Shown one piece after another: positions 3,208-64,000 of a DNA stretch of 64,000 nt. Position numbers and translations under genes: made by a program. A model generated the notes under the pieces. The model searched no databases. It saw nothing but the letters and a program-made list of their open reading frames with translations, and had not been told where the DNA came from. The stretch's first letter is position 1; every line of letters begins with the position of its first letter. The stretch spans positions 1,632,001-1,696,000 of the forward strand of contig OZ245003.1 of the NCBI GenBank assembly GCA_965223425.1. Reading direction: 5' to 3'. Source of the stretch: Nitrosopumilus sp. Its GTDB lineage: Archaea > Thermoproteota > Nitrososphaeria > Nitrososphaerales > Nitrosopumilaceae.

Positions 3208-3565
3208 GAAGGTAAGACTGTCAATAAGGTCGCAAAACCATCTGGGACAGCTCAAACACAAGACAGGCCTGTCAATCAACGTTCTTGCCAGATTCGGAAT
3301 CTGCCTCTCCTTGAAGGATTCCAGTCTGCCAAATCCGGACATGTATGACGAGAAGGGAATGGAGCTGCTTCCACACGTACTGTTTGGGAAAAACGAGCTG
3401 ATATATGCCGCAATGTTTCAGAAGAGGCTTTATGACGACGGGCTTGACTATCAGAAATATGCCGGCCGCATGATACGGGCGCACATAAACCGCGGTGCCG
3501 GGATTCTGTTTCCAAGAATTGACAGACTGGAAGGCTTTGGAGTCCTGCTGGAGAAAAACGCATAG
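3179..3565 (+). CDS. dndE: DNA sulfur modification protein DndE (true start probably TTG ~3194)
   Basis: LKHKTGLSINVLARFGICLSL and RAHINRG motifs; position between dndD and dndA. Confidence 0.88.
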   Translation: MWGRQLHRLEKVRLSIRSQNHLGQLKHKTGLSINVLARFGICLSLKDSSLPNPDMYDEKGMELLPHVLFGKNELIYAAMFQKRLYDDGLDYQKYAGRMIRAHINRGAGILFPRIDRLEGFGVLLEKNA

Positions 3566-61292: not shown

Positions 61293-61443
61293 CTTTCTGG
61301 CCAGAATTTCACAGTATGTGATCGTAAATAATTAGAAAGAAAAAGAAAACAAAAAATTCAGAGCAACCAAAAAAATCAGACACCAATCCAAAATCATTTC
61401 AAAAAAATCATTACACCAAAACAGAATCAAGATAATAAAAAGA

Positions 61444-61507
61444 AGGGCCATGATGAGACTCCATTCATTCTGACATCAATATGATGACAGAGATCAGTCT
61501 GAGCCCT
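61444..61507 (+). ncRNA. Box C/D guide sRNA (canonical)
   Basis: AGGGCC ATGATGA gactccattcatt CTGA catcaat ATGATGA cagagatcagt CTGA GCCCT. Confidence 0.85.
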
Positions 61508-61590
61508 CAAATTCAATCTAACTGACTTCAATAAAAATCAGACCATACCAAACCAACCACTCATTCCAAGAAAATCAAGATAATAAAAAA

Positions 61591-61654
61591 AGGGCGGTGA
61601 TGAGTTCCATTCATTCTGTCATCATTATGATGATAAACCCCCAGTCCTGGCCCC
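61591..61654 (+). ncRNA. Degenerate box C/D sRNA copy
   Basis: AGGGCG GTGATGA gttccattcatt CTGT catcatt ATGATGA taaacccccagtc CTG GCCC. Confidence 0.55.
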
Positions 61655-61696
61655 CATTCCCCAGCAACACATACCAATTAAAACATTCAAAAAGAA

Positions 61697-61794
61697 AAAC
61701 ATCCTGATGAGCCCTTTTGGGCCAACTCCAATCAGAACATAACTGGTTTGGATGAGCCCTACTAGGGCGAAACTGCCATTGGCAGTCGATGTTT
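61697..61794 (+). ncRNA. Type I hammerhead ribozyme 1
   Basis: Stem I AAACATC/GATGTTT, CTGATGA, stem II GCCCT..AGGGC, GAAA, stem III CTGCC-ATT-GGCAG, GTC cleavage after 61787. Confidence 0.85.
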
Positions 61795-62136
61795 CGCAAA
61801 ATACTTTCGCGAGTATCTGGTGGCGAAAAGCTGCCAACAATCAGAAAGGGCACTAAAGAGTATGCCCTAAGAATATTCCTTCGAGGGGGATATGTTCTCC
61901 GTGATGGTTCACGATTGGTATGTTTGCCCACTTGTTATTGGGATCACAAACTAGACCGGCCATACATGGAATGGTTTGAAATAAGCCGAGACGGCACTCT
62001 AACATATTACAGACTAAAGGATTCTGTAAAGGCTGTTGCCGAGTGCAAGGTTGAATCAAATTATGGGTTCATACCAAAAGCCACATACCCTCGTGTCATG
62101 AAGGCCTGTCGGGCTCCATGCAACTCTGGTTGTTAA
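61789..62136 (+). CDS. Small hypothetical protein directly after hammerhead 1
   Basis: MFRKILSRVSGG..; AUG one nt after the predicted cleavage site. Confidence 0.6.
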   Translation: MFRKILSRVSGGEKLPTIRKGTKEYALRIFLRGGYVLRDGSRLVCLPTCYWDHKLDRPYMEWFEISRDGTLTYYRLKDSVKAVAECKVESNYGFIPKATYPRVMKACRAPCNSGC

Positions 62137-62210
62137 CTGATAATTCCTCTCACGAGGAATATCTTCCCCTTTTTATTAAACTGTAAATTTACAGCATGCC
62201 AAACCGGCAT
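62134..62210 (+). repeat. Conserved 3' box of the cassette (second copy at 62589-62670)
   Basis: ATTCCTC/GAGGAAT hairpin, T-run, ATGCC/GGCAT hairpin in both copies. Confidence 0.8.
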
Positions 62211-62234
62211 TCCAATGAAAACTTTCAAAAAGAA

Positions 62235-62332
62235 AAACATCCTGATGAGCCCTTTTGGGCCAACTCCAATCAGAACATAACTGGTTTGGATGAGCCCTGC
62301 TAGGGCGAAACTGCCATTGGCAGTCGATGTTT
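62235..62332 (+). ncRNA. Type I hammerhead ribozyme 2
   Basis: Identical to copy 1 except one stem-II base; cleavage after 62325; 538 nt period. Confidence 0.85.
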
Positions 62333-62560
62333 CGCAAAATACTTTCGCGAGTATCTGGTGGCAAAAAGCCACAAACCAAAGAGTGTCCAGATAACATTGT
62401 CTGCATGGAAGACGAAAGAATCGGATACATCGAACGTGACGGTTCGCGGTTGGAACGTTATCCATGGAGATGTCAGCAGGAAGACTACGATAAAGGTTAT
62501 CCAGAACTGAAATGGGCCAACCTCCGGTTAGACAAAGCAGCTTGCAGAGAAGCAAGTTGA
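62327..62560 (+). CDS. Small hypothetical protein directly after hammerhead 2
   Basis: Same first 12 aa as the 61789 ORF, then largely divergent. Confidence 0.55.
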   Translation: MFRKILSRVSGGKKPQTKECPDNIVCMEDERIGYIERDGSRLERYPWRCQQEDYDKGYPELKWANLRLDKAACREAS

Positions 62561-63134
62561 CTCAGAGTCTTCATACGTCTTTGGTTACTAACTGATAATT
62601 CCTCTCATGAGGAATATCTTCCCCTTTTTTATTAAACAGAAACTAATTTTACAGCATGCCAAACCGGCATCCATAAATCATTCTTGAAAATATAACATCA
62701 AATCAAACACGGCAATCGCACAGAGACATGCAGATGAGCTTTTTTATTATCATAATTTTATCAATTCAACATCATATTGGGCCAGTGTCCCAATTTACAA
62801 AGGCAAATTTCAGAAAATTTCACGCCATTGCTTCCTTATTATGATGAGCAAGAAAAAAACACCCTATTATCCGCGCATCAAGCGAGAATTTGAGCCCGAC
62901 CCGGAAGACAAGGAAATCTGGTAGGCGCTCATGCCCCTTTTTTTCTATAACATCCATTTGATTGTTTTATCATTATGTACATGCGTTCCGGCATGTCTTT
63001 ATGAAATTGTAATGATGACTGGCACGGGGCGTATGGAATCGCCTGAGTTTCGGACTGTGATGAAACAGTTTGAGCAAAGTCCACACGAGTGCCCACATTC
63101 AATTCATGAAACAGCGAAAGCTTGACCAAGAAAA

Positions 63135-63186
63135 CCATGCCGATGTGCTCTACTTGAGCGAAACAGCCCTTTGTGGCAGTCCATGG
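63135..63186 (+). ncRNA. Divergent/degenerate type I hammerhead 3
   Basis: CCATG CCGATGT GCTC-tactt-GAGC GAAA CAGCC..GGCAG TC CATGG; two core deviations and one stem III mismatch. Confidence 0.55.
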
Positions 63187-63596
63187 AAAGAACCATGACA
63201 AAGAAAGTCAAATTTCTTAAAAGGAGACTTGCCTGTTCCTTGCGTATAGAAAACATCTCTTATCGACTGATGTTTGATTGCGGTCCAATAGGAAGACCAT
63301 ATTCTGCAATCGTTTATCAGCTGATGTTTGATTGCGGTCCAATAGGAAGACCATATTCTATAATCGTGAGTCTAGTCAACAAGCTTCTCAGAAAAGAAAG
63401 ACTCTATCCTAACGACTACGACAGTCCGGATTTTCCTGCATGCTGCAGAAAAACGATTGTTGGGTTGGAAAATACCAGTAGTATTAAGGGCAGCGCATTT
63501 CCTCACAGATGCAAGACCTGCAATAGGGAGTGGCAATACTACTTTGGATATGTGTTGCATAGTAGCCTATTTGGAGAACAGCCAATATGGGACTGA
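63183..63596 (+). CDS. Small Cys-rich protein directly after hammerhead 3
   Basis: ATG 63183 one nt after the GTC site; CC..CxxC; internal 18-aa duplication. Confidence 0.55.
   Translation: MERTMTKKVKFLKRRLACSLRIENISYRLMFDCGPIGRPYSAIVYQLMFDCGPIGRPYSIIVSLVNKLLRKERLYPNDYDSPDFPACCRKTIVGLENTSSIKGSAFPHRCKTCNREWQYYFGYVLHSSLFGEQPIWD
63260..63367 (+). repeat. 54-bp in-frame tandem duplication
   Basis: YRLMFDCGPIGRPYSAIV / YQLMFDCGPIGRPYSIIV. Confidence 0.9.
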
Positions 63597-63727
63597 CCCC
63601 CACTCTTTTTTTCTAATCATATTTTCTTAATTTTAGACACACAACACCTGCAAATAATCAACACATACTTTTTGATTATTTCATTAATGCGGCAAGGCAT
63701 CACCTCTTGCTGTTTTGTAATTCCAAC

Positions 63728-63790
63728 GGGGGCCATGATGAGACAGAACAGTTCCGACTCTGTGATGAGTGAGACGACATCCGAGTCCTC
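63728..63790 (+). ncRNA. Box C/D sRNA with CCGA D/D' boxes
   Basis: GGGGGCC ATGATGA gacagaacagtt CCGA ctct GTGATGA gtgagacgacat CCGA GTCC. Confidence 0.7.
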
Positions 63791-63867
63791 ATTGTCAGTA
63801 ACTGTATCATTGATTTTAACCTTGGTGCCACTCTGTACAGTCTTGCACCGCTTTGAAAAAATCCAAC

Positions 63868-63981
63868 GGGGGCGATGATGAATAAAATTATGGCCCAATC
63901 TCATGATGAGACACAACAGTTCCACTCCTGGAATCCACCTCCTCCTAGAAGGTTCTGTGACAGGCCGCTATCTGAGCCCCC
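63868..63981 (+). ncRNA. Degenerate/extended box C/D sRNA
   Basis: Same TCCAACGGGGGC leader, ATGATGA at 63875 and 63903, terminal CTGA GCCCCC. Confidence 0.45.
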
Positions 63982-64000
63982 ATCAATCATACAAATTAGA

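Follow-up and report, generated by a model that had tools for sequence, protein, structure and literature searches.

The 64,000-nucleotide (nt) stretch of Nitrosopumilus sp. contig OZ245003.1 analysed here (positions 1,632,001 to 1,696,000, hereafter the window) carries three type I hammerhead ribozyme motifs (HH1, HH2 and HH3) on its forward strand, and a fourth (HH4) lies just past its end. In each of them, the start codon of the open reading frame (ORF) behind the ribozyme is paired within stem I and stands one nucleotide after the predicted cut. The motifs are part of a family of 29 hammerhead loci that we located in 12 genomes from four genera, all within one archaeal family. We consider it probable, though well short of certain, that the hammerhead is a portable, context-independent 5′ processing module for mobile-element cassettes, whose cleavage would give a near-leaderless mRNA for translation.

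Hammerhead motifs with the start codon in stem I

An earlier note on this DNA had described three type I hammerheads with GUC cut sites after 61787, 62325 and 63181, followed by ATGs at 61789, 62327 and 63183, and all three sites were confirmed on re-reading (Table 1). Over 61400–64000, contigs from three DNA sequencing runs matched this sequence without differences. According to the sequence reading and string location, HH1 consists of a 7-base-pair (bp) stem I (AAACAUC/GAUGUUU), the core CUGAUGA at 61704–61710, GAAA at 61769–61772, a 5-bp stem III (CUGCC/GGCAG) and GUC, with C17 at 61787, followed by G and the ATG at 61789. The 3′ strand of stem I includes the AUG in paired form, which places the start codon inside this stem, as the note had it. 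HH2 has the same anatomy (C17 at 62325, ATG at 62327), and a repeat search placed both motifs in a 169-nt direct repeat with 95 % identity (61670–61838 versus 62208–62376). The core of HH3, CCGAUGU, departs from the consensus at two positions (C4 and U9), its stem III contains an A·A mismatch and its stems I and II differ from those of HH1 and HH2; HH3 is possibly impaired. In all four cases, the ATG at the predicted cut is the first ATG of its ORF (115, 77, 137 and 221 amino acids, respectively), and no GGAGG-like or Shine–Dalgarno-like sequence was seen on reading inside the ribozymes. The predicted folds contain the three-way junction in the minimum-energy structure of HH1, HH2 and HH4 and in the centroid structure of HH3, with fold z-scores of −4.9 (HH1), −3.4 (HH2), −2.2 (HH4) and −0.9 (HH3).

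Table 1. Ribozymes, cargo ORFs and accompanying units at the hammerhead locus (window coordinates unless stated)
Feature	Position	Strand	Remarks
Canonical C/D box small RNA gene	61445–61506	+	Terminal stem GGGC/GCCC; C, D′, C′ and D boxes; spacers ~12 nt
Paralogous C/D box-like unit	61592–61655	+	Degenerate D′ and D boxes; ends 41 nt before HH1; sR55 16.3 bits, below threshold
HH1, type I hammerhead	61697–61794	+	Perfect core, long stem II; predicted cut after C61787, leaves G-AUG
Cargo ORF1	61789–62136	+	115 amino acids, 6 Cys; first possible start is the AUG in stem I
Small hairpin and C-rich/T5 run after ORF1	62140–62176	+	Terminator-like; recurs after ORF2 (61-nt repeat, 87 %)
HH2, type I hammerhead	62235–62332	+	Near-identical copy of HH1; predicted cut after C62325, leaves G-AUG
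Cargo ORF2	62327–62560	+	77 amino acids, diverged ORF1 paralogue
26-amino-acid ORF	62844–62924	+	No hammerhead; ends ...DPEDKEIW
Weak C/D box-like unit upstream of HH3 (uncertain)	63009–63077	+	SNORD110 18.2 bits, far below threshold; box-like strings
HH3, minimal type I hammerhead	63135–63186	+	Predicted cut after C63181, leaves C-AUG (ATG 63183)
Cargo ORF3	63183–63596	+	137 amino acids from first ATG, Cys-rich
Two C/D box-like units, degenerate	63728–63981	+	Second ends CUGA + GCCCCC 20 nt before HH4; Rfam below threshold
HH4, fourth copy	G000:C1:1696001–1696053		Begins one base past the window end; core CUGAUGU (U9); leaves C-AUG

A descriptor scan of the 2.64-Mb genome for the hammerhead pattern, with no constraint on the bases after the cut, returned three sites, all at this locus, and ten first-order Markov simulations of the genome returned 0, 0, 0, 0, 0, 1, 0, 0, 0 and 2 sites (mean 0.3). 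The hammerhead motifs are not due to chance. The same had been argued earlier from the third copy. The suggested check with Infernal and the Rfam hammerhead models, on the other hand, gave nothing at gathering scores, the best sub-threshold scores being 18.8–20.0 bits: HH1 scored 20.0 bits against RAGATH-1-hammerhead (RF03152; gathering score 56.3), HH4 scored 18.8 bits against Hammerhead_HH9 (RF02275; gathering score 52) and 19.1 bits against RAGATH-1, and HH3 had no Rfam hammerhead match even below threshold. The motifs share with both of these families the core, the three stems and an open stem I, but the extra elements of RF03152 and RF02275 are absent here (19–20 bits versus 56.3 and 52). 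By core and fold, the motifs fit the hammerhead class; they fit no curated subfamily.

The cargo had been described as different small Cys-containing proteins, or microproteins, which holds only in part. ORF1 and ORF2 are paralogues that share their first 12 residues and 28/70 residues overall (40 %), and ‘micro’ is true of some cargo only, the best conserved being a membrane-anchored nuclease of ~220–235 amino acids. This type is represented here by the 221-amino-acid ORF4 behind HH4, a staphylococcal nuclease (SNase) homologue (Pfam PF00565, SNase domain; PHROGs endonuclease) with a hydrophobic N-terminus by reading. ORF1 returned no Pfam or PHROGs match and no homologue in a word-indexed protein search at near lengths, and ORF3 returned no family match in Pfam or PHROGs. 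The flanks of cassettes 1 and 2 (61670–61838 versus 62208–62376; 62114–62210 versus 62569–62670) are 87–96 % identical around coding centres with 40 % protein identity, a pattern that suggests flank homogenisation or fast cargo evolution. A separate feature of ORF3 is an internal 54-nt tandem duplication (63255–63362, 89 % identical) that repeats 18 residues in frame.

A hammerhead family in related archaea

Relatives are cited below by genome handle, this genome being G000. Model R1, made from HH3 and HH4, found no hammerhead elsewhere in 150 relatives; its sequence specificity was too high, and its six weak matches were coding sequence. A generic pattern (core, CGAAAC, GTCNATG) run over 401 genomes of the class gave 10 matches, compared with 4 for the reversed control, and these included, besides HH4, four well-paired hammerheads with an ORF behind them (G036, G340, G217 and G350), two of which precede orthologues of the ORF4 nuclease. 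A gene-first search with ORF4 added two further hammerheads, G271a (by the descriptor without the ATG condition) and G262 (by upstream reading). Model R2, built from seven sequences, then had full-length matches in 8/151 genomes of the genus, including HH1 and HH2 despite their stem II insertion (HH1: 38.6 bits, E ~8e-6 per genome, full length); HH3 is a seed of both R1 and R2, so its scores there are circular. In a sample of the family, R2 identified three more genomes, G217 (five copies in 2.5 kb), G270 (five) and G271 (two), and in 0/42 genomes of the class outside the family was there a convincing match. The R2 genomes and G350 together make up the 12 genomes of the total, and the search of relatives for more cassettes that had been proposed was thereby productive. 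Within the 29-locus count, the start and ORF of HH3 were read from the ORF list. G564 and G488 figure only in the tallies of the gene-first search and of the modB pattern search described below, and support no claim. The match in G178 (27.2 bits, no ORF) was dropped from all counts. An exact stem III/cut-site pattern occurred in 19 genome-contig, 15 metagenome-contig and 0 viral-contig stretches, none of them with a hammerhead upstream, and was read as chance-level.

The start codon follows the cut closely throughout the family. It stands 1 nt after the cut as AUG in 24/29 loci and as GUG in one (G271b), and in the remaining four (G217e, G270b, G270d and G270e) an AUG lies 2 nt after the cut. 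The spacing of one nucleotide, which the earlier note expected homologues to conserve, was therefore kept in part: the start adjoins the cut in 11 other genomes, but the distance is 2 nt at 4/29 loci and at one locus the real ORF lies 36 nt downstream. From the cut-adjacent start, the ORF runs for at least 56 amino acids at 18 loci, for 26–48 at eight and for 9–11 at three; as a baseline that counts in-frame internal Met codons, 22 % of random ATGs in this genome open an ORF of at least 56 amino acids. Orthologues of the SNase-domain (PF00565) cargo keep the hammerhead and the N-AUG in G000, G036, G340, G262 (two copies), G271 and G054a, while stem II varies among these nuclease-cargo hammerheads (GCUC/GAGC, GGGA/UCCC, GGAA/UUCC and GGAU/AUCC). 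The consensus core, with a variable N7, is present in 24/29 loci, the exceptions being HH3, HH4, G286 (G6), G217d (U12, and UAAA for GAAA) and G270c (an irregular stem III base); in G054b, stem I is broken. The 26-amino-acid ORF of the window (Table 1) has a look-alike in G217, a member of another genus, that starts 2 nt past a hammerhead cut (G217e); the two were compared by eye only.

Covariation was assessed in an alignment of seven sequences (A3), five of which had passed a pairing filter beforehand: 97.9 % of cells are paired and 7/14 pairs have changed on both sides. None of 500 shuffles reached the covariation score, and structures slid by 1–3 columns pair in 21–38 %. Compensatory changes are found in all three stems and across genera. 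The three stem I pairs that form CAU/AUG are invariant, whereas four pair types are seen for the nucleotide that precedes the AUG and its partner; this would be expected of an AUG held constant as a codon within a stem that is otherwise selected for pairing alone. The identification of hammerhead-type RNAs is upheld by this strong covariation in all three stems, which also supports selection acting on them. We regard the motif, its specificity, the covariation, the geometry across genomes and cargo and the link with mobile-element arrays as established.

These data also bear on whether the motifs could be decaying relics or DNA-level repeat ends with no RNA function, their link with the AUG having been inherited from one ancestral fusion. 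The core or stem defects of HH3, HH4, G286, G217d and G054b would fit such decay, as would the recent duplication of HH1/HH2 and the restriction of all members to one archaeal family. DNA repeats, however, have no need of compensatory changes in all three stems across genera; the same geometry recurs before unrelated cargo (at least eight distinct N-termini among the loci), and cassettes 1 and 2 share 95 % identity in their 169-nt 5′ module against 40 % in their proteins. We thus regard this explanation as extremely unlikely.

Model R3 spans only CUGAUGA to GAAAC (core and stem II) and is blind to stem I. Run over 151 genomes, it yielded 14 complete hammerheads, each with an AUG 1 nt after the cut, as well as the inner half of HH1/HH2 at ~20 bits, and no complete hammerhead lacking an adjacent AUG was present among its matches. 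A further 19 matches lacked both stem III and stem I; these were treated as chance matches and left out.

The inner half recovered by R3 reflects an unusual stem II. In HH1 and HH2 this stem is closed by GCCC/GGGC and holds an insertion of ~53 nt (stem II region 61711–61768 and 62249–62306). Within the insertion, GAUGAGCCC...GGGC occurs a second time, nearly repeating the core and stem II segment and aligning with the corresponding parts of HH3 and HH4. Because the insertion repeats this segment, two pairing registers are possible in HH1/HH2, and the insertion may be a duplication scar or a switch. Cleavage could then be conditional, a true gate in which the insertion refolds or binds a protein or ligand. 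The two registers, the alignment of the inner copy by both R1 and R3 and the recurrence of long stem II insertions in G286 and G350 all favour a gate, but the minimum-energy and centroid folds correspond to the active hammerhead, stem II is simply 4 bp long with a 5-nt loop in ~24/29 members and the long insertions are unlike one another in sequence, which makes a gate quite improbable.

Predicted 5′ processing and the alternatives

Many of the ribozymes are preceded by C/D box small RNAs (sRNAs). By regular-expression count, a canonical C/D box sRNA ends 22–55 nt upstream of the ribozyme in at least 13/29 loci, including HH4, and the unit at 61445–61506 and those upstream of G217a–c, G262, G054a, G340 and G270b qualify as C/D box sRNAs by reading. 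The best Rfam match of 61445–61506 is SNORD60 (27.8 bits, below the gathering score of 42), and the unit at 61592–61655 is tied to it by shared repeat families. In G217, the repeating unit has the order modB (a conserved element described below), sRNA, hammerhead, ORF. Guides of the sRNAs directed at the ribozyme or ORF (e.g. for C17 methylation) were considered and rejected: no complementarity of 9 nt or more was found in 16 loci, the best being chance 7–8-mers. Other loci have different upstream sequences. G036 has a 51-codon open frame that extends into the ribozyme, and in G270b, d and e, a TATA-like box was read ~25 nt before stem I, such that the ribozyme may lie at the very 5′ end of the primary transcript. 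In 1164 long ORFs of the genome, TATA-like pentamers are most frequent 28–32 nt before the first ATG and GAGG is only modestly enriched, a sequence pattern consistent with frequent leaderless transcripts.

We infer that the motifs cleave in vivo, that the sRNAs are co-transcribed with them and that the products are translated, in the following manner. The transcript would originate in the upstream sequence, whichever that happens to be: frequently a C/D box sRNA gene in the same orientation, but an ORF in one relative and a TATA-like box in others. The ribozyme would fold and cut after position 17 and, since its body lies wholly upstream of the cut, cleavage would remove everything 5′ of the N-AUG, the ribozyme body departing with the upstream RNA and leaving a product of the form 5′-HO-N(1–2)-AUG. 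Before the cut, the AUG would be paired, internal and without a Shine–Dalgarno sequence, and no translation would be expected; afterwards, the short stem I would fall apart and the AUG would be 5′-terminal, as leaderless initiation requires. Given that the ribozyme has no Shine–Dalgarno-like sequence and its AUG is paired, a leaderless product formed by cleavage would be the simplest route to translation. The module would then serve as a natural ‘insulator’, or 5′-end generator, for cargo that moves between contexts. In S. solfataricus, the 5′-triphosphate carried by leaderless mRNA acts as a mimic of the −1 base (PMC11698992); by analogy, the extra nucleotide retained at −1 could stand in for the triphosphate.

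Several points weigh against this role. The consensus core, with all positions matching, is limited in this genome to HH1 and HH2; at gathering thresholds nothing in the window matches Rfam and no Rfam hammerhead model reaches its gathering score. Natural hammerheads owe their fast cleavage at low Mg2+ to a tertiary contact of stem I with loop II, and no conserved complementarity between loop II and the flanks was visible by eye, with no dedicated test made, in alignment A3 or in A5, which leaves out G271b. Individual loci also deviate: at G619a, the AUG opens an 11-amino-acid ORF and a nuclease-type ORF begins 36 nt downstream behind GAGGT, G286 pairs the core G6 with a 9-amino-acid ORF, G271b has a GUG start and an 11-amino-acid ORF, and G217d has UAAA instead of GAAA. 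By reading, an AT-rich box lies so close at several loci that transcription from a start at the standard distance would begin within the ribozyme, and the T runs after ORFs, together with nearby TATA-like elements, appear to leave the candidate transcription starts ambiguous. Ascertainment must be considered too, as most family members were found with AUG-containing queries; those found without use of the AUG are the descriptor sites of this genome, G271a and G262. Moreover, most changes to the hammerhead core cost much activity (Perreault et al. 2011, PMC3088659), which weighs on HH3 and HH4, and a 5′-hydroxyl (5′-OH) product might be translated poorly, given data from S. solfataricus, on whose 30S subunits 5′-OH leaderless mRNA forms weaker initiation complexes than phosphorylated RNA does (PMC11698992).

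The last point leads to the possibility that cleavage lowers expression or discards read-through RNA, with an unstable or poorly translated 5′-OH product keeping harmful cargo such as the nuclease low. Ribozyme cleavage lowers expression in the case of glmS, and this explanation would draw on the weaker 5′-OH initiation complexes just mentioned, the fact that the best conserved cargo is a nuclease and the weakened cores of several copies. A simple destabiliser, however, has no need of a start placed 1–2 nt from the cut in 29/29 loci (one of them GUG), and the uncleaved RNA has no alternative ribosome-binding site, which would leave intact conserved ORFs (221–234 amino acids in six genomes) with no evident route to translation. 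We therefore think a purely negative role unlikely, although it deserves to be kept in mind.

The layout of the cassettes suggests a different comparison. In retrozymes and satellite repeats, hammerhead-excised RNAs are circularised by an RtcB-type ligase, and tandem hammerheads here could likewise excise unit-length RNAs with 5′-OH and 2′,3′-cyclic phosphate ends, to be circularised by such a ligase, the cassettes being circular-RNA or mobility units. Same-strand arrays do occur, with four hammerheads in 2.4 kb here, five in 2.5 kb in G217, three and two in G270 and three 297-nt units in G066. However, a C-rich stretch and a run of T5–T7 stand behind each window ORF and within each 297-nt unit of G066, and oligo-T acts as an archaeal terminator, which points to separate transcripts. 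Single-copy cassettes exist (G036 and G340), unit lengths and cargo vary, no reverse transcriptase was noticed beside the arrays among the ORFs scanned, and the conserved AUG would be left unexplained. Circular RNA is accordingly a very improbable purpose of the cassettes. The G066 array itself (G066:C2:119122–119771) consists of three identical tandem units of hammerhead, 34-amino-acid ORF and T run with a 297-nt period, in a genome listed with 11 % contamination.

Genomic setting and relation to known ribozymes

The genome encodes archaeal AmoA, and MCR alpha was not found, marking the host as an ammonia-oxidising archaeon. The window contains a range of genes typical of mobile elements and defence (DndD, VirB4-like and VirD4-like ATPases, a T2SSE-type ATPase, a DDE transposase, a C5 methylase and an EcoRII-like protein), along with an MmeI-type enzyme, a Cas3-HD-like protein, an actin-like partition protein and bPH/SHOCT proteins; judged by this gene content, window positions 1–58027 look like an integrated conjugative or defence island. 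Downstream there are mostly ORFs with no family match and one weak PCNA-like match.

Outside the window, at G000:C1:1696790–1702710 (L063:790–6710), is a conserved element of ~85 nt that we call modB, with single copies near C1:998225, 1430686 and 1888569 and further copies in relatives (L268–L297). modB starts after a T run, and invariant stretches flank three covarying helices (RNAalifold: 16 pairs, 9 changed on both sides). A 21-nt modB pattern occurs in 13/201 family genomes and 0 times in the reversed control, often in arrays and mostly in hammerhead-carrying genomes. The element precedes ORFs, tRNA-like units or a C/D sRNA and hammerhead unit, and upstream of nuclease orthologues in G009 and G270 it stands in the hammerhead's place. 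It has no Rfam match and may represent a novel structured RNA, a processing element or else a site of recombination. The tRNA-like genes in the same region, also outside the window, lie at L063:868–955 and 2002–2091 (Rfam tRNA, 59.6 and 56.1 bits), with weaker copies at 1674–1756 and 3384–3466 (24.8 bits). They have a long extra arm and a GAU anticodon (Ile by ARAGORN), follow modB and precede small Cys-rich ORFs; their repeated 5′ and 3′ halves are confined to this island.

A broader scheme would unite these elements in an expression grammar of archaeal mobile elements. In this scheme, a hammerhead with the start codon in stem I makes a 5′-HO-N-AUG mRNA, typically from a C/D sRNA precursor, cleavage is obligatory, the −1 nucleotide replaces the triphosphate, and modB and the tRNA-like units, with which the hammerhead alternates along the arrays, perhaps do the same job by other chemistry. 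We offer it tentatively; taken as a whole it is possible, but we would sooner bet against it.

The earlier statement that no equivalent had been described was too strong, as there are precedents in prophages and haloviruses (PMC3088659) and in fungal RNA viruses (PMC13725137). Perreault et al. (2011, PMC3088659) report clustered prophage hammerheads that flank single genes, and proposed that these cut long transcripts into gene-length mRNAs; in haloviruses HF1/HF2, a hammerhead (HHphage) lies 13 nt upstream of the helicase start codon. Their natural core variants include U4C, and at least three archaeal representatives, unnamed in the main text and listed in the supplement, may overlap with the present family. 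Like the prophage and HF1/HF2 hammerheads, those described here are DNA-encoded, reside in mobile elements, occur several per strand and precede varied single genes, with an archaeal-virus case near a start codon. In those cases, in contrast, the start codon is 13 nt away and not in stem I, and we found no discussion there of a leaderless product or a C/D sRNA partner. Lopez-Galiano et al. (2026, PMC13725137) describe type I hammerheads in the 5′ untranslated region of chrysoviruses that are needed for translation initiation, and a fusarivirus hammerhead that cuts 7 nt before ORF2; according to the authors, the usual loop–loop contacts are wanting in these ribozymes. These are likewise type I hammerheads upstream of an ORF, but they are described in eukaryotic RNA viruses, with cap-independent translation and the start codon outside stem I, whereas here the setting is archaeal DNA mobile elements, the leader would be 1–2 nt and the function is predicted.

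A group of bacteriophage type I hammerheads in IMG/VR, with stem I ...CAUA/UAUG..., is located 0–41 nt before genes. At 7/31 of its loci, an ORF (86–417 amino acids) starts at an AUG 1 nt after the cut; at 14/31, the first ORF of at least 60 amino acids begins 22–41 nt downstream, so the usual product in this group would have a short leader. The AUG-in-stem-I design is common to the phage group, as a minority of its loci, and the archaeal family, and the two are unrelated in sequence. The conserved post-cut bases of the phage group often read Met-Ser-Asn.

Looser likenesses concern function only. R2 and L1Tc retrotransposons begin with hepatitis delta virus (HDV)-like ribozymes, which set the 5′ end of the mRNA regardless of the transcript upstream and support translation; unlike the hammerheads they are of another class and remain on the mRNA. 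RiboJ is an engineered ribozyme insulator, an artificial device. In the literature, with supplements not covered, we found no natural ribozyme-made leaderless mRNA and no hammerhead from Thaumarchaeota; for RAGATH hammerheads nothing on start codons was found, and for U9 (A9U) only aptamer papers. The hammerhead as an mRNA 5′ processing element is thus already known, and what sets the present family apart is the start codon inside stem I, the predicted 1–2-nt leader, the archaeal mobile-element setting and the sRNA linkage.

To our knowledge, no role has been established for most of the hammerheads encoded in the DNA of prokaryotes and of their viruses. This family offers a precise and testable one, with the cut site locked 1–2 nt from the start codon of varied cargo, and similar cassettes are probably under-annotated because the curated models miss the family. 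If cleavage is needed for translation, this would be, as far as we could find, the first natural case of a ribozyme-made leaderless mRNA. It would tie the production of sRNA and mRNA to a single transcript, provide a natural counterpart to engineered ribozyme insulators and extend the hammerhead-dependent translation of eukaryotic RNA viruses to archaea.

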